From: Candidatus Altarchaeum sp.
GTDB taxonomy: Archaea > Altiarchaeota > Altiarchaeia > Altiarchaeales > Altiarchaeaceae
Direction of reading: 5' to 3'
Length of the DNA stretch: 31,225 bases
Assembly: GCA_018260615.1 (NCBI GenBank)
Contig: JAGWDQ010000068.1
Span: 1-31,225, forward strand
The notes under the pieces were generated by a model. It saw only the letters and a program-made list of their open reading frames with translations. It did no database searches and had not been told where the DNA came from. This document shows, one piece after another, positions 7,332 through 23,287 of this stretch (position 1 is its first letter; each line of letters starts with the position of its first letter). Position numbers and translations under genes: made by a program.

Positions 7332-7412
7332 TTTATATATGTCTTAAATTTTATTGTATTTTATAAATTTTAATGTGTTTTAATATGGAGATATATAAAT
7401 TTGTATGTAAAG

Positions 7413-7487
7413 TGGGCCTGAAGAGATTTGAACTCTTGACCGCTCGGTTATGAGCCGAGCGCTCTAACCAAACTAAGCTACGGGCCC
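7413..7487 (-). tRNA. tRNA-Ile2 (CAU anticodon, agmatidine type)
   Basis: GGGCCCGTAGCTTAGTTTGGTTAGAGCGCTCGGCTCATAACCGAGCGGTCAAGAGTTCAAATCTCTTCAGGCCCA; GGGCCC acceptor with A73 is typical of archaeal Ile2 rather than Met; no encoded CCA. Confidence 0.85.
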
Positions 7488-7502
7488 ATAAATTTAAATT
7501 TA

Positions 7503-7575
7503 CGCCTCGAACAGGACTTGAACCTGCGACCTGCCGATTAACAGTCGGATGCTCTACCAGCTGAGCTATCGAGGC
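7503..7575 (-). tRNA. tRNA-Asn (GUU)
   Basis: GCCTCGATAGCTCAGCTGGTAGAGCATCCGACTGTTAATCGGCAGGTCGCAGGTTCAAGTCCTGTTCGAGGCG; full cloverleaf with G73. Confidence 0.97.
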
Positions 7576-7685
7576 AAACAAAAAACCAAATCAATAAATA
7601 ATTTAATTTTGAAAAACTAATTTTTTGTGTAAATAATTAACATTTGATAAATAAATTTAATAAATAAAAAATAAAATTTTGGAAG

Positions 7686-10169: not shown

Positions 10170-11000
10170 ATGAGTGATATACTGAACGACGGAATAAATT
10201 TCATAATCAATGAATTCACACGGGTTGAATATACTTGGTTTAATACGATTATGTTTGGAATTGTGCTAATCATCGCCTTGTTCCTTGTTATAAAACTAAT
10301 GAAGAAATGGAATATAGAGATAGATAAAAATTTTGTTTTTGCTTTACTTCCGTTTATCCTTTTTGGTTCCACGATGCGGGCGTTGGCAGATGCAGAAATT
10401 TATCCGAACAGACCGGATGTGTTGGCGTTTTTCTTCATTGCCCCGGGGATATATTTTACAATATTCCTGATTACAATTGCATCTTTGCTTATCGGGCTTT
10501 ACATTTTTAAGAAAAAATATTATAAATTTATGCTTGTTGCAGGATGTCTTTTGTTCGGATTAAATTTAGTCCTGATTGCGATGTTTTTGTATTCTCATTC
10601 TGCAACTGCAAATTTTGGCGTGTTTGTTGTTTTTTTGATTTTTGCTATGTGCGTAATTGTCATTTATGCACTTATGAAATTAAATTTTTTTAAATTTTCA
10701 AATTTTTTAAGATATGAAAAGAATTACATTATCGTATTGGCACATTTATTTGACGCTTCAACAACATACATCGGAATTGCCTTCTTTGGTTACTTTGAAA
10801 AGCATGTGCTTCCGTCTGCGGCGATTGAAATTTTTTCACCTGCAATTATGTTTGTGTTAAAGCTTATTGTAATTCCAGCCCTTTATTTTATAGACCAGAT
10901 AGATGACAAGACAACGAGAAGGATGATTAAAATCGTGATATTTATACTTGGAATTTCTCCGGCAATAAGAAATTTTACCAGAATTTTGTTAGGGGTCTAA
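10170..11000 (+). CDS. DUF63-family archaeal membrane protein
   Basis: YTWFNT, PFILFGSTMRALAD, APGIYF, AHLFDASTTYIG, EKHVLP, LGISPAIRN. Confidence 0.85.
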   Translation: MSDILNDGINFIINEFTRVEYTWFNTIMFGIVLIIALFLVIKLMKKWNIEIDKNFVFALLPFILFGSTMRALADAEIYPNRPDVLAFFFIAPGIYFTIFLITIASLLIGLYIFKKKYYKFMLVAGCLLFGLNLVLIAMFLYSHSATANFGVFVVFLIFAMCVIVIYALMKLNFFKFSNFLRYEKNYIIVLAHLFDASTTYIGIAFFGYFEKHVLPSAAIEIFSPAIMFVLKLIVIPALYFIDQIDDKTTRRMIKIVIFILGISPAIRNFTRILLGV

Positions 11001-11002
11001 AA
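10951..11002 (+). repeat. Left direct repeat of island (3' end of the DUF63 gene)
   Basis: 52 bp matching 15370-15420 with 2 substitutions and 1 indel; the 23-bp core AGAATTTTGTTAGGGGTCTAAAA (10980-11002) is identical to 15398-15420. Confidence 0.9.
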
Positions 11003-11176: not shown

Positions 11177-11263
11177 GTATAACGGTTCGAGCATATCTGA
11201 AGTCCAGCTTGCTAAATTTGGGCGAAATGCTGTAGGCACGGAGTCAGATACGCTCTGTTAAGT
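11177..11263 (-). other. attC-like recombination site 1
   Basis: Minus strand: ACTTAAC (RYYYAAC) A GAGCGTATCTGA ... TCAGATATGCTC GAACC GTTATAC; 87-bp imperfect palindrome downstream of the HEPN gene. Confidence 0.75.
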
Positions 11264-11326
11264 GACCCAAGCGATAGTAAGGGCGGGCAACCCAAAGGGT
11301 TGCGAGGAGTCGGAGCAATTGCATAT

Positions 11327-11761
11327 TTACATACCCTGTGATTTTAATATGGTTTGAGTTTTAGCAAGTAATTTTTTGGCGTTTTCTACAGTGATTTTGG
11401 CACTCTCCTCATCATAAGTCAGGCCATAATCTGCTTCATGCCTAAGGTCCATACTCATCTCAAGATTATCTGCAAACTCATGTTCCAATTCATTTGTTCT
11501 GACGTATAACTCCCTAATGGCAATTAGCAGACAATTGTGGCTTTTTTCTCTATATCCCTTTTTAAAGACAAGTGCTTTTGCTGCGTGGAACATTGAGTAG
11601 TATGCCTGCACTGATGCCCATTTATAATCCTCATTATGCAGACTTTCTTCTGCTCGCATCAAATCATATTCAGCTCCATATAATTCCTTTTCTATCATTT
11701 CGTCAGAGGCATTTATCCGAATAAGGCGTCTTTCCTCTATGCATTTTTCAAATTCGTTCAT
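11327..11761 (-). CDS. HEPN-domain protein (toxin of an MNT-HEPN pair)
   Basis: AYYSMFHAAKAL, KSH, LRHEADY. Confidence 0.88.
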   Translation of the reverse strand: MNEFEKCIEERRLIRINASDEMIEKELYGAEYDLMRAEESLHNEDYKWASVQAYYSMFHAAKALVFKKGYREKSHNCLLIAIRELYVRTNELEHEFADNLEMSMDLRHEADYGLTYDEESAKITVENAKKLLAKTQTILKSQGM

Positions 11762-11762
11762 T

Positions 11763-12317
11763 TTAATCGCGCCACAATACCATTCCTTTATTCACTTCCG
11801 CATAAAAAGCAATATCATTATTCTTCAAATTAACGAAGCCGTGGGGCGATAATATTATTGGTTTAAGTTTTCTGCCGCCCACGCTTGCGCCTTTCAAAAT
11901 TTTCTTAATCTCTTCCACATCCTCTGTTATTACCAGGATGTCTATGTCGCTATCCAACGTATCCTCACCCATCGCACAACTTCCAAATAAAATTATTTTC
12001 TTGGACATATTTTTAATATCCTTTAGAATATCATTCAGTTCTTGGACATTTATGAATATCTTGAAATGTGCTATGGCAGGATTTCCAATCCTTATTTTGT
12101 AGTACTGATTCCGTCCGCTCTTTTCCATGTCGACTAATTCCATGTTAAACAATTCTTTCAAAACTTTATGGCATCCGCCGAGGCTATTTTGATTCAATCT
12201 TGCGATTTCGCGCACGTAATATTGTTTATTCGGTGAGCGTGATAAATATGCCAATACCTTGATTGCCAGCGGACTCAAATTCAATTTTTTGAACATATGT
12301 TCGTTATTTTGAACCAT
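11763..12317 (-). CDS. HTH-fused minimal nucleotidyltransferase (MNT antitoxin)
   Basis: N-terminal wHTH (YYVREIARL) plus LFGSCAMGEDTLDSDIDIL (GSx10DxD). Confidence 0.88.
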   Translation of the reverse strand: MVQNNEHMFKKLNLSPLAIKVLAYLSRSPNKQYYVREIARLNQNSLGGCHKVLKELFNMELVDMEKSGRNQYYKIRIGNPAIAHFKIFINVQELNDILKDIKNMSKKIILFGSCAMGEDTLDSDIDILVITEDVEEIKKILKGASVGGRKLKPIILSPHGFVNLKNNDIAFYAEVNKGMVLWRD

Positions 12318-12423
12318 GATAATACCTTTTTCTTGTTCTTATAAATCCATCTGTTGATATTCTTCAAACCATTTAATGGGTTCTTTCATTTTATTACCTC
12401 AAATATATTAAAGCTGCTATTTC

Positions 12424-12477
12424 ATATAACGGTTTGCGGCTATGCGCCGTTTTAATGGCGTATAGCCGCTGTTAGGC
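12424..12477 (-). other. attC-like recombination site 2
   Basis: Minus strand: GCCTAAC A GCGGCTATACGCC ATTAAAAC GGCGCATAGCCGC AAACC GTTATAT; begins 6 nt after the ATPase stop codon. Confidence 0.88.
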
Positions 12478-12483
12478 GGCGTA

Positions 12484-14013
12484 TTAACTTATTTTGTTTT
12501 TGATAAAATCTCTCATTAGTTTTATTGATTCTTGGAGTTGTTCAAAGTTGAATCTATTATTTAAAGTATTTTCAGGATGATGAATTTGGTGTCTGATAAA
12601 TTCACTTAACACTATATTATCTTCTTCAATTATTTTTCCATTTTTTTCACGTTTATACTTTAAAGTGTGTTTGCCATTTTTATACTCATTTAGTTTACCT
12701 TCACTTTCGATGTACCCATAAAGTTCGTTATGATATTCTTCGTCAGCTTCTCCAAAAGCTAAGAAATTAACTTCATTTAAAGATTGATATGGTAATTTAT
12801 TTTTTTCAATATTTATTACTTCAACTATTCCATTTTCTTTTTTAAGGAGTTTTAATTGCTCAAATTCTAAAAGTTTAACAATTGCGGGACTATGAGTAGT
12901 TAATATTATTTGAGTGTTATTAGCATTTGACAATGATTTAAAAGCTTCGATTAACATTCTTTGATGTTTAGGATGCTGGGAGGTTTCTGGTTCTTCAATT
13001 CCATAAATGATATTAGGGACATTTTTTTCCTGTTGTCTTCTTTCTGCTTCAGCTCTAAAAAAATTGAGTAATACAAGACGCTTTATTCCACTACCTCGCT
13101 TATTGATAGGTATATTTTCATCTCCCGAAATCGAAACACCTTTAAATACATCTACCCATTTTAAATTCTCTGCTTGTGGAATGACAGGATTAAGGCTATT
13201 AGCAACTTCTGGGTTCATTTCCCGGAGTTTTTTCAATGTTCTATCAGAAACCTCTTTCAATTTATTCTCTACTTCATTGGCAATTTCATTAAATTTTATT
13301 CTAATATTTTCATTGCTTAATATCTGTTTTACTGCTTCCTTTAAAGGGTCTTGTATTTCATTATCACCATCACTATTCTTACGGTCAGACTGAAAAAGAG
13401 CATATAAAGGCATATAGTTTTTAAGCTGTTCCCAAATATTTTTAGCATCTTCTTTTGATACATCAATCTCAATTTCATTTAATTGCAAATTATTAAAATT
13501 ATTCCAAATTTCTTTTCTGATTACAGCGTTTTTAGTTTTGTCTTCACAATCTAATTTATTTGTTTCAAGTATCTTTTTAAGTTCGGTATTTTTCTTTAAC
13601 AATAAATCTGAGCAAGCTGGATTAGTTGGGTGTTTTGCTTTAATGAAAACTTTTTCTTTACCACCGTTGGGATATTTTTTAATTATTTCTAACTGCCCAT
13701 CGGAATTAAGAAGAAATTCATCTTTTAGGTTTGTAGGATTTGTTGCGTCTATAGTAATAGTATCCGGCAAATCATCAAAAACCACAGATATTTTTATTTC
13801 TTCATTTCCATCGTCTCTGGCGAATTTATTTACATCATTTGAATCAATTTTAATTGTGCCTTTGCCTTCATTAAAGAAAATATCCAATGCTTCTAATATT
13901 GACGATTTACCAATATCATTTTTACCTACAAAAGTGGTTAAATTACCAAATTCAAAAACAGTCTCTTCTTTGTAAGCTCTAAAGTTCTCTAGTTTTAGTT
14001 TTTTTATTTTCAT
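12484..14013 (-). CDS. ABC/AAA_15-type (OLD-like) ATPase with a C-terminal RxxxxH HEPN-like domain; putative defence protein on a gene cassette
   Basis: Walker A GKNDIGKS, signature RGSG, Walker B/D-loop IEEPETSQHP, H-loop TTHSP; no TOPRIM motif seen; C-terminal IRHQIHHPEN. Confidence 0.8.
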   Translation of the reverse strand: MKIKKLKLENFRAYKEETVFEFGNLTTFVGKNDIGKSSILEALDIFFNEGKGTIKIDSNDVNKFARDDGNEEIKISVVFDDLPDTITIDATNPTNLKDEFLLNSDGQLEIIKKYPNGGKEKVFIKAKHPTNPACSDLLLKKNTELKKILETNKLDCEDKTKNAVIRKEIWNNFNNLQLNEIEIDVSKEDAKNIWEQLKNYMPLYALFQSDRKNSDGDNEIQDPLKEAVKQILSNENIRIKFNEIANEVENKLKEVSDRTLKKLREMNPEVANSLNPVIPQAENLKWVDVFKGVSISGDENIPINKRGSGIKRLVLLNFFRAEAERRQQEKNVPNIIYGIEEPETSQHPKHQRMLIEAFKSLSNANNTQIILTTHSPAIVKLLEFEQLKLLKKENGIVEVINIEKNKLPYQSLNEVNFLAFGEADEEYHNELYGYIESEGKLNEYKNGKHTLKYKREKNGKIIEEDNIVLSEFIRHQIHHPENTLNNRFNFEQLQESIKLMRDFIKNKIS

Positions 14014-14035
14014 AATTTTATCCTCTTAATATGCC

Positions 14036-14159
14036 GCCTAACTGATTATATCCGCAGTTATTGCGTATATCATCCTGATTTAGCATGATATCTGCATTGC
14101 ACATATGACTCCAATTTGACAGCATATCCGCAGTTATTGCGTATATTCTCATTTTAGAT
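14036..14159 (-). other. Degenerate attC-like (or attI-like) site 3 supplying the GTTAGGC core of the ATPase cassette
   Basis: Minus strand: ATCTAAA ATGAGA ATATACGCA ... TGCGGATAT AATCA GTTAGGC; contains a 23-bp direct repeat ATATCCGCAGTTATTGCGTATAT at 14048-14070 and 14124-14146. Confidence 0.65.
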
Positions 14160-14593: not shown

Positions 14594-14938
14594 ATGCACG
14601 CAACGAACTTCAGAAAGAAAACATTTATAGTTGGGATAAAGGATGATATTTTGAAATGCCTTAATGAAGTAGGAGTATCTGTAAAAAAGGTAATACTTTT
14701 TGGTTCAAGAGCAAGAGGGGATTACACAAAACACAGTGACTATGACTTTCTTATAATTACTGAGAAGAGATATACATTCAAAGAAAAGATAGAAATTTCA
14801 GGTAAGATTAGAAAACTTTTTGTTCGGTTTCATATTCCAAGCGATATAATAATAAAATCCGATGATGAAGTAGAATACCTTAAAGATAAGATCGGAAGTG
14901 TTATAAGGTTAGCATTAAAAGAAGGCATTACAATATGA
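14594..14938 (+). CDS. Minimal nucleotidyltransferase (MNT antitoxin)
   Basis: VILFGSRARGDYTKHSDYDFL. Confidence 0.9.
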   Translation: MHATNFRKKTFIVGIKDDILKCLNEVGVSVKKVILFGSRARGDYTKHSDYDFLIITEKRYTFKEKIEISGKIRKLFVRFHIPSDIIIKSDDEVEYLKDKIGSVIRLALKEGITI

Positions 14939-15321
14939 TGGATGAATACATTAAAAAGTGGATTATAAAGGCATTAGAAGACTTTAAAGTTGCAAAACAC
15001 GAATTATCTTTCCCGGATGAAGAAGTTTCTACGGGTGCCGTCTGTTTTCACTGTCAACAGGTTGTGGAAAAATTATTGAAAGCATATCTCATATCTAAAA
15101 ACAGGGATTTTGGACGAACTCATGATTTGACATATCTTGCAGATTTATGTTCAGATTATGATAAAGATTTCAAAAAGTTCGATTTGGAAGAGTTAACATA
15201 TTATGCCGTAGAAATCAGATACCCTGATGAATTTTACATTCCCTCTATTGAAGAAACAAGAGAATGTTTTGAGATTGCTTCAAAGGTTAAGGACTTTGTT
15301 TTCCACAAGATGGGAATATAG
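14935..15321 (+). CDS. HEPN-domain protein
   Basis: WIIKALEDF, CFHCQQVVEKLLKAYL, RTHDL, YAVEIRYP; 4-nt overlap with the MNT gene. Confidence 0.9.
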   Translation: MMDEYIKKWIIKALEDFKVAKHELSFPDEEVSTGAVCFHCQQVVEKLLKAYLISKNRDFGRTHDLTYLADLCSDYDKDFKKFDLEELTYYAVEIRYPDEFYIPSIEETRECFEIASKVKDFVFHKMGI

Positions 15322-15369: not shown

Positions 15370-15420
15370 GAATTTCTCCAGCAATAAAAATTTTACGAGA
15401 ATTTTGTTAGGGGTCTAAAA
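15370..15420 (+). repeat. Right direct repeat of island (orphan copy of the DUF63 3' end)
   Basis: Matches 10951-11002, including the GTCTAA stop codon. Confidence 0.9.
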
Positions 15421-20958: not shown

Positions 20959-22227
20959 TTAATAAATTTTCAGCAAATCCTCAAATTTTTCCCTTCCCCT
21001 CAACAACTTTACTTTTTTATCTTTTGTGATTAAAATTTCCGCCGGTTTTAGCGTTGAATTATAATTTGAACTCATACTAAATCCATAAGCACCGGCATCA
21101 AAAATAGCAAGAACATCATTCCTCTTTGCTGCAATTTTTCTGTTTTTTCCCAAAATGTCCCCGCTTTCGCATAAATTTCCGGCAATATCAAAAATTTCAT
21201 CACCATCGCTCAAATTGCTTAAATTTAAAATTTTGTGGTATGCATCATACATCGCAGGCCTGATTAAATCGTTAAATCCGGCATCAACATTTATAAATTT
21301 CTTATAAGGTGTCCGCTTAATACTTAAAACCTTTGTAAGCAGTATTCCTGCATTTCCGACGATGCTTCTTCCCGGTTCAAGAATTAATTCAATTTCATAG
21401 CCCAAATCTTTATTTAAATTTTCAATTATGGGAATTATACCGTTTGCTAAATCGTCATGAGTTAAGCCATTATAGTTTCCATCGTGCGGATAGTCAATTC
21501 CCAGTCCGCCGCCCAAATCAACAAATTTCAAATTTATTCCAAGGTCGTGCAAATCCGTCACTATTTTGCTGATTTTTTCCGCTTCTTCAATAAACGGCTC
21601 TATTTCTGTAATCTGCGAGCCGATATGGCAGTGAATTCCCAAAATTTCAAAATTTTTTTGTTTCGCAAGTTTGTATGCCTCAATTGCCTGCCTGATGTTA
21701 ATTCCGAATTTTGATTCCTTAACTCCTGTTGCAATCTTATCATGCGTATGCGGATTCACTTCCGGGTTTATCCTGAATGAAATTTTCGGTTTCTTGTCTA
21801 ATCGTTTTGAAATTTCATCTATGATTTCTATTTCTTCAAATCCGTCAATGTTGATGGTGCATCCGAAATTTAATGCAAATTCAATGCTTTCATCTGTCTT
21901 TCCGTTGCTTGTAAATATCACATCTCGCGGATTTACGCCAGTGTATTTTGCCATGTGTAATTCTCCTTCGGAAACACAATCCGCCCCGACATTTAAATTT
22001 TTCAGAATTTTACAAATAGCAGGGTTCGTGTTTGCCTTATACGCATACATCTGTCTAAATTGCCCGTAGTTCTTAAATGCATCGCGATATTTTTGAACAT
22101 TTTCCTGCAAAATATCTTCAAAATATATATAAGTCGGGGTTTTAAATTTTTCCGAAATTTCAAGTAAAATTTCTTTGTGCTTAATCGGGTATTCTTCTGT
22201 ATCCATTTTTGTATTTTTATTTAGCAT
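20959..22227 (-). CDS. lysA: Diaminopimelate decarboxylase (alternative start ATG 22206)
   Basis: YAYKANTN (PLP Lys), SKFG, HCHIGSQ, DLGGG, EPGRSIV, GNLCESGD, GAYGFSMSSNYN. Confidence 0.96.
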   Translation of the reverse strand: MLNKNTKMDTEEYPIKHKEILLEISEKFKTPTYIYFEDILQENVQKYRDAFKNYGQFRQMYAYKANTNPAICKILKNLNVGADCVSEGELHMAKYTGVNPRDVIFTSNGKTDESIEFALNFGCTINIDGFEEIEIIDEISKRLDKKPKISFRINPEVNPHTHDKIATGVKESKFGINIRQAIEAYKLAKQKNFEILGIHCHIGSQITEIEPFIEEAEKISKIVTDLHDLGINLKFVDLGGGLGIDYPHDGNYNGLTHDDLANGIIPIIENLNKDLGYEIELILEPGRSIVGNAGILLTKVLSIKRTPYKKFINVDAGFNDLIRPAMYDAYHKILNLSNLSDGDEIFDIAGNLCESGDILGKNRKIAAKRNDVLAIFDAGAYGFSMSSNYNSTLKPAEILITKDKKVKLLRGREKFEDLLKIY

Positions 22228-23055: not shown

Positions 23056-23217
23056 AATTTTTTTACTCTCACCAAATCAGTGGCTTAATTATTTTGTAAT
23101 CCAAATCATGAGTATTTATTTTTGTCCAATCCGCAAATTCTACTTCATTATTTGAGATTTTTTTATTATTTTTGTTGTGAAAGCCCCTCTAAAATTTCAA
23201 CAAAACAGATATATGAC

Positions 23218-23287
23218 GGGTTTTAAATTTTTCAGAAATTTCAGGTAAAATTTGTTTGTGCTCAATTAGGTATTCCTGATTATCCAC
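23218..23287 (-). pseudogene. lysA: Decayed duplicate of the lysA 5' end
   Basis: 59/69 nt identical to 22137-22205; translates VDNQEYLIEHKQILPEISEKFKT versus MDTEEYPIKHKEILLEISEKFKT. Confidence 0.85.

Follow-up and report, generated by a model that had tools for sequence, protein, structure and literature searches.

The 31,225-nucleotide window analyzed here is contig JAGWDQ010000068.1 (C68) of a 2.2-Mb Candidatus Altarchaeum assembly (GCA_018260615.1, referred to as G000) from groundwater that is 87% complete. Its minus strand carries a two-cassette array that probably represents a decayed version of an integron-like platform for gene capture, operated by a tyrosine recombinase lacking the I2 insertion of integron integrases (IntI). 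The presence of an integrase-less gene-cassette array in an archaeal chromosome had been proposed from the letters of the window (original prediction) and was confirmed, whereas the enzyme and the recombination sites turned out to differ from those assumed. Read along the minus strand, the array consists of the following elements.

14327–14169, minus: leader (promoter/5′ region) of a deleted recombinase gene, running straight into the next element
14162–14036, minus: attI-like insertion site, three imperfect direct repeats followed by CGGATA-N6-GTTA, with the putative crossover between 14042 and 14041
14041–12430, minus: cassette 1, 1612 bp
14013–12484, minus: gene for an AAA_15/OLD-type ABC ATPase of 509 aa with a C-terminal RxxxxH motif (PF13175, E 7e-91; PADLOC AriA-like, E 5e-80)
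12477–12424, minus: attC-like hairpin site A, 54 nt, short type, end of cassette 1
12429–11183, minus: cassette 2, 1247 bp
12317–11763, minus: gene for a minimal nucleotidyltransferase (MNT) of 184 aa with an N-terminal extension, probably helix-turn-helix (PF01909/PF18765; PADLOC PDC-M05A, E 7e-23)
11761–11327, minus: HEPN-domain gene, 144 aa, the toxin-like partner in the MNT-HEPN pair (PF05168, E 1e-17)
11263–11177, minus: attC-like hairpin site B, 87 nt, end of cassette 2

The ATPase cassette had been delimited correctly, with core and inverse-core ends, and the complementarity of these ends exceeded the 11/12 originally claimed. GTTAGGC begins at 14042 and GCCTAAC at 12477, and 16 of 17 nucleotides are complementary, the single mismatch being a G·T pair on the bottom strand; random GTTA-anchored 17-mers drawn from the genome reached this value in 54 of 500,000 trials. 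The RxxxxH motif of the ATPase was present in 118 of 119 homologues, and the gene is a candidate defense gene. The ends of cassette 2 are complementary at just 7 of the first 9 nucleotides, and a 16-codon open reading frame with a GAGGT ribosome site (12389–12339) precedes its first annotated gene; this cassette may be a fusion of two. The best homologue of its nucleotidyltransferase is 69% identical and the named close relatives are archaeal, so that cassette 2, judged from its protein matches, looks archaeal. Across 18 cassettes of the genome, cassette ends matched their own start at a mean of 6.7 of 12 positions versus 3.9 of 12 for the start of the next cassette.

Three palindromes with RYYYAAC cores had been placed at gene boundaries. 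Two of them, sites A and B, were recovered by a covariance model (R1) built from 17 other sites of this genome with those of the window left out (E 1e-7 and 4.4e-10, respectively), the site profile and R1 having replaced a generic AAC…GTT hairpin scan that was too noisy and missed site B. Beyond sites A and B, an R1 scan of the 31-kb window yielded nothing of note. The third (14036–14159) contains no RYYYAAC, was not matched by R1 and consists of direct repeats. It was also considered as a dead attC and rejected, as it has no inverse core, is built of direct repeats and has copies behind an integrase. The two attC-like sites lie 1.2 kb apart on a contig without a recombinase. A CALIN, an attC cluster devoid of an integron integrase, is defined by two or more attC within 4 kb in the absence of a neighboring intI, and the present sites are not canonical attC sites.

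The attI-like site comprises two identical 23-bp direct repeats 76 bp apart and a degenerate middle copy. Nine full copies and one partial copy are present in this genome, each followed by cassette-type sequence, and their alignment is conserved up to GTTA and divergent beyond. At three conspecific loci (L158–L160) the module lies directly behind a recombinase gene, and contig C38 starts with the last bases of that gene. Related repeat-plus-GTT modules were found behind the recombinase in Nitrospirota, Micrarchaeota, Hydrothermarchaeales, Methanosarcinales, Desulfitobacterium and others, and the motif at the attI end occurred within 300 nt behind the recombinase gene at 19 of 54 loci compared with 21 of 248 control windows. 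As in integrons, an insertion site is thus found beside an integrase gene, with crossover at GTT and accessory direct repeats; the window's own copy of the gene is deleted.

Over 160 nt, the segment ahead of the attI-like site in the window matches the DNA that precedes the recombinase start codon on contig C79 at 88% identity. No remnant of the recombinase was found in the window. Intermediates of the deletion exist elsewhere: on C127 of G003 the first 13 recombinase codons are fused to the attI-like site, and C70 retains an apparent C-terminal tail. The fusion of leader and insertion site, together with these intermediates, indicates that the window array is an internal deletion derivative of a complete platform, and this comparison of copies shows, as far as alignments can, that the recombinase gene was lost between the two elements. 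Since the deletion junctions differ among copies, the deletion probably occurred more than once. The simple assumption that the integrase is encoded elsewhere therefore does not describe this locus, where the enzyme's leader is still attached to the insertion site. Three Altiarchaeum genomes together retain at least 11 copies of the leader. Its RNAalifold structure has four hairpins, in which 8 of 23 pairs show compensatory changes, and no Rfam match was obtained. The leader may act as a cassette promoter or be a structured regulatory element not described before. A sigma-70 promoter scan gave results near chance (34 versus 24.7), with a consensus that is not suited to archaea.

Approximately 26 sites were found in this genome, and the short type represented by site A is unique among them. 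In the site fold, 91% of cells were paired, 10 pairs carried compensatory changes and an invariant G·T pair stood beside the core, values exceeding those of all shuffled and slid controls. On the bottom strand, TAAC pairs with GTTA, the invariant G·T pair follows, 3–4 nt are pushed out, and a stem of 10–11 bp begins (compensatory changes at 8 of 11 pairs). In 19 of 20 sites the stem was unbroken and the GTT arm carried a single 3–4-nt bulge; site B has AAC, one base pair and a 4-nt bulge. The bottom strand was the more stable one in 17 of 21 sites, and the bottom-strand fold of site A scored z = −4.7. The arms carry the boxes TAAC-N6-TATVCG and CGBATA-N10-GTTA, and the insertion site carries CGGATA-N6-GTTA (8 of 10 copies); with the bulge taken out, the folded site has the box-to-core spacing of the insertion site. 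This geometry differs from that of the canonical attC sites predicted originally, in which an unpaired spacer of about 5 + 4 nt precedes an L box with extrahelical bases. The aadA2 attC, the only one of two to three class 1 controls that folded cleanly, showed a 5 + 4-nt spacer and extrahelical bases, and R1 found no match in three class 1 integron loci. The right cores of sites A and B (GTTATAT and GTTATAC) deviate from GTTRRRY. A viral scan for site A gave no match.

A single tyrosine recombinase was found in the assembly (C79:92–1120, L002; 342 aa), co-oriented with its arrays. It passes the NCBIfam model NF040815 and stays below the cut-off of the integron-integrase model TIGR02249 (207 versus 265 bits), and relative to IntI1 and VchIntIA about 41 residues are missing at the position of I2. 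The original assignment of the enzyme to IntI is thus contradicted, and it is the I2-less family that heads such arrays. Residues 1–65 were predicted to fold as a HARP-like domain (predicted local distance difference test score, pLDDT, 92), with best structural matches to UvsW, XPB and the HARP domain of SMARCAL1; this domain was modeled alone because the full-length model was poor in the catalytic domain (pLDDT <50). The HARP profile was matched in 36 of 39 family members. In G000 the C79 enzyme carries Arg197Gly at the catalytic arginine, which is Arg in 100 of 100 other loci checked and in three conspecific alleles, and an IS630-like transposase element lies right behind the gene, between it and its insertion site (C79, C49). 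As the assembled recombinase lacks the catalytic arginine, the array, though perhaps still usable in trans, is probably frozen in this strain. Two further members may be noted. A 273-aa I2-less recombinase in G029 (L192:833–1990) is divergent from the adjoining attI-like and hairpin sites, which is the classical integron orientation, and on a Chryseobacterium plasmid (L170:7962–12208) a family recombinase is followed by short co-oriented genes among which R1 found no match.

An ordinary CALIN, in which a true IntI, since lost or not assembled, acts on canonical attC sites, would share the AAC/GTT cores, the cassette-specific end complementarity and the bottom-strand bias with the array described here. 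Archaeal CALINs and IntIs do exist (PMC9668308), and the incompleteness of the genome leaves room for such a gene. However, the genome search for an IntI-type recombinase with I2 that had been suggested found none above cut-off in this 87%-complete assembly, nor in five relatives, among them a 90%-complete genome in one scaffold that contains 12 sites of this type. The site geometry is unlike that of the class 1 attCs folded here, R1 misses class 1 loci, and the attI-like site and leader belong to an I2-less gene. We consider an ordinary CALIN unlikely.

Movement of cassettes was followed by comparing loci. L161, L163 and L165, loci that encode the same recombinase and share 98.5–99.7% identity, part at the insertion-site GTT. 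Two loci from the species of the window (L159 and L160) agree at 99.8% identity as far as a hairpin-site GTT, after which they continue with cassettes that are found on C69 and C36 of this genome. In 66 other genomes, R1 matches numbered 31 downstream and 1 upstream of I2-less recombinases, although the upstream sequence searched was twice as long. Taken together, the aligned loci show that in this family cassettes have been exchanged as units with breakpoints at GTT. The genome is rich in other palindromic repeats, and the hairpins might accordingly be repetitive extragenic palindromic (REP) elements, miniature inverted-repeat transposable element (MITE)-like repeats or terminators that lie between genes by chance. 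This reading is largely refuted by the GTT breakpoints between loci and the comparison with bacterial cassettes, where whole gene-plus-site units recur beside different neighbors with boundaries at GTT; covariation with strand-specific G·T pairs and the one-sided clustering behind the recombinase also speak against it, and we regard it as highly improbable.

The bacterial origin considered in the original prediction gained support for cassette 1, which this archaeon shares with bacteria over its full length. Its DNA, site A included, aligned GTT to GTT with cassettes from Bacteroidia (84% nucleotide identity over 1619 nt) and Exilispira (79%), with unrelated neighbors. The relatives of the ATPase were 81–87% identical and those named came from Bacteroidia, Bdellovibrionaceae and Exilispira, and site A was 90–96% identical to sites in Bacteroidia and Exilispira arrays. 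In Exilispira, the cassette 1 orthologue comes fifth in an array headed by a co-oriented family recombinase (46.5% identical, 3 gap positions), and its upstream neighbor differs in other samples. Because the short site-A type is unique in this genome and recurrent in bacterial arrays, bacteria are favored as the source, and cassette 1 was most likely acquired from them, as far as such matches can indicate direction. The Exilispira locus (L184:5055–21400) is a long co-oriented array headed by an I2-less recombinase, with defense-type genes (TIR domain, type III restriction-modification); in another sample, a UvrD-helicase gene lies between two of these genes.

The recombinase family is patchily distributed, being present in 12 of 31 related genomes (some of these are more distant paralogues) and broken in several, and in the recombinase tree the archaeal copies fall among bacterial ones. 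With no support for the deep nodes of this tree, we propose neither a donor for the recombinase nor a sequence of events. The enzyme could instead be an Xer-like passenger or housekeeping protein, the cassettes being moved by a visiting IntI or by host recombination between similar repeats. NF040815 is an archaeal XerA-type model, and the recombinase aligns to archaeal XerA without gaps. A housekeeping role fits poorly with the patchy and partly broken distribution and with archaeal copies nested among bacterial ones. The recombinase also lies directly ahead of attI in many phyla, and the breakpoints are at GTT and not inside shared homology. An Xer-like bystander is therefore a very unlikely explanation.

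Several observations weigh against an I2-less gene-capture platform. Biochemical work on IntI has I2 needed to dock extrahelical bases and to block second strand exchange (PMC7790495). With the genus-trained R1, sites were matched at just 13 of 66 loci, and the array is unchanged in five other assemblies, giving no movement at this locus. The structural matches of the HARP-like domain have Z scores of 7.4 or less, and the domain is not universal: 14 of 80 alignments stop short of it and the 273-aa member in G029 lacks it. Finally, with the genome 87% complete, an unassembled IntI may still exist.

The array is part of a larger insertion, with the following additional features.

10951–11002, plus: left copy of a 52-bp direct repeat, the 3′ end of the DUF63 gene and left island boundary, 94% identical to 15370–15420 and present as a single copy in G001 and G003
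14594–15321, plus: second MNT-HEPN gene pair, within the island and outside the array (PF18765/PF01909 and PF05168), missing at this locus in G001 and G003
15370–15420, plus: right copy of the 52-bp repeat, the displaced DUF63 3′ end with a 1-bp deletion, right island boundary

In genomes of the same genus, the counterparts of the two flanking genes, DUF63 and transaldolase, show 86–93% identity. In the congeners G001 and G003 the transaldolase gene directly follows DUF63, leaving an empty site, whereas in the window a 4.4-kb island bounded by the 52-bp direct repeat of the DUF63 3′ end lies between them; duplication of a gene's 3′ end as a direct repeat and relatives with an unoccupied site are both hallmarks of integrative islands. 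On sequence grounds the host is archaeal, and bacterial contamination of the contig was ruled out by synteny with the congeners. Five other assemblies, which probably come from one sampling site, carry the island and array at 99.85–100% identity, so that an assembly artifact can be dismissed. A cognate integrase was not found: the island contains none, and the 87%-complete assembly gave no serine recombinase and only the one tyrosine recombinase. Two metagenome scans for the right junction of the island gave no match. In G002 (C131, L147:93–168) a similar right junction borders a different interior, as if the DUF63 3′ end were a reused insertion site. At 22109–22205 and 23191–23286, a second duplicated gene end (97 bp, 81%) flanks a further small insertion, so that insertions accompanied by such duplications may be a general feature of this genome. 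Elsewhere in the window, a 195-bp MITE-like element with terminal inverted repeats occupies 165–359 (copies on C98 and C125), and genes for tRNA-Met and tRNA-Asn, unrelated to the island, lie at 7412–7576 on the minus strand; an Rfam scan of the window gave these two tRNAs and nothing else.

The intact integron-like unit would consist of the leader, the recombinase gene, the attI-like site and cassettes, all in a single direction. Folding of the bottom strand of a cassette site would extrude the 4-nt bulge at a distance of one base pair from the AAC/GTT core and place the conserved TATVCG/CGBATA box 6 bp from the core, which is the spacing of the bulge-free, double-stranded attI. The recombinase would then cut the folded bottom strand at G/TT, as in integrons, and insert the cassette at attI, with the bulge serving as a landmark and the upstream direct repeats as accessory binding sites. 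It is conceivable, though doubtful, that the HARP-like N-terminal domain reads the bulge in place of I2, a role that is a guess because members without the domain exist. At the locus studied here, the platform would have arrived inside the 4.4-kb island, whose insertion duplicated the DUF63 3′ end.

The array resembles CALINs (Cury et al. 2016, PMC4889954) in its pair of hairpin sites behind genes of one orientation, in the lack of a nearby integrase and in an origin through loss of the integrase gene (their mechanism iii). It differs in retaining the insertion site and the integrase leader, in site geometry and in that the lost enzyme was not an IntI. With archaeal integrons (Ghaly et al. 2022, PMC9668308) it shares the archaeal host, toxin-antitoxin or defense-type cassettes and sites common to archaea and bacteria. 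Those integrons were found by canonical attC models and have IntIs with the IntI-specific domain, whereas here a whole cassette, gene plus site, was matched across domains; Altiarchaeota appear in the main text of that study solely as the root of a tree. Co-oriented ("inverted") integrase integrons, e.g. of Treponema (PMC4889954), likewise have integrase and cassettes in the same direction and attI behind the 3′ end of the integrase gene. They are detected as IntI by the IntI-specific profile, a segment that the present enzyme lacks while carrying a HARP-like N-terminal domain. Recombinases without the IntI-specific domain were set aside by the authors of IntegronFinder (PMC4889954), and I2 has been described as the enabling innovation for integron integrases acting on single-stranded hairpins (PMC7790495). 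An "Integron-like" subgroup of tyrosine recombinases includes members without the insertion (Smyshlyaev et al. 2021, PMC8138268); the portions of that work and of the NF040815 entry considered here assign no arrays, insertion site or activity to them. A literature search that largely excluded subscription journals returned no description of I2-less arrays. Because I2 and canonical attC geometry were both looked for and neither was present, the system falls outside the definition of IntI, while appearing integron-like in its working.

We lean, if only modestly, toward a second kind of integron in archaea and many bacterial phyla, which would use folded single-stranded sites with a 4-nt bulge, dispense with the I2 helix and perhaps rely on a HARP-like domain to recognize the bulge. 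In Altiarchaeum, one or two recombinase genes would serve about ten scattered sites in trans, and a defense-type cassette would have been carried from bacteria to the archaeon, a nucleotide-level case of one cassette in both domains. The minimal 54-nt site, the matching insertion site and the intact conspecific enzyme make the claim directly testable. If the family works in this way, there is a second means of capturing hairpin cassettes, and arrays of this kind would have been missed or taken for orphan CALINs, since detection tools define IntI by I2.

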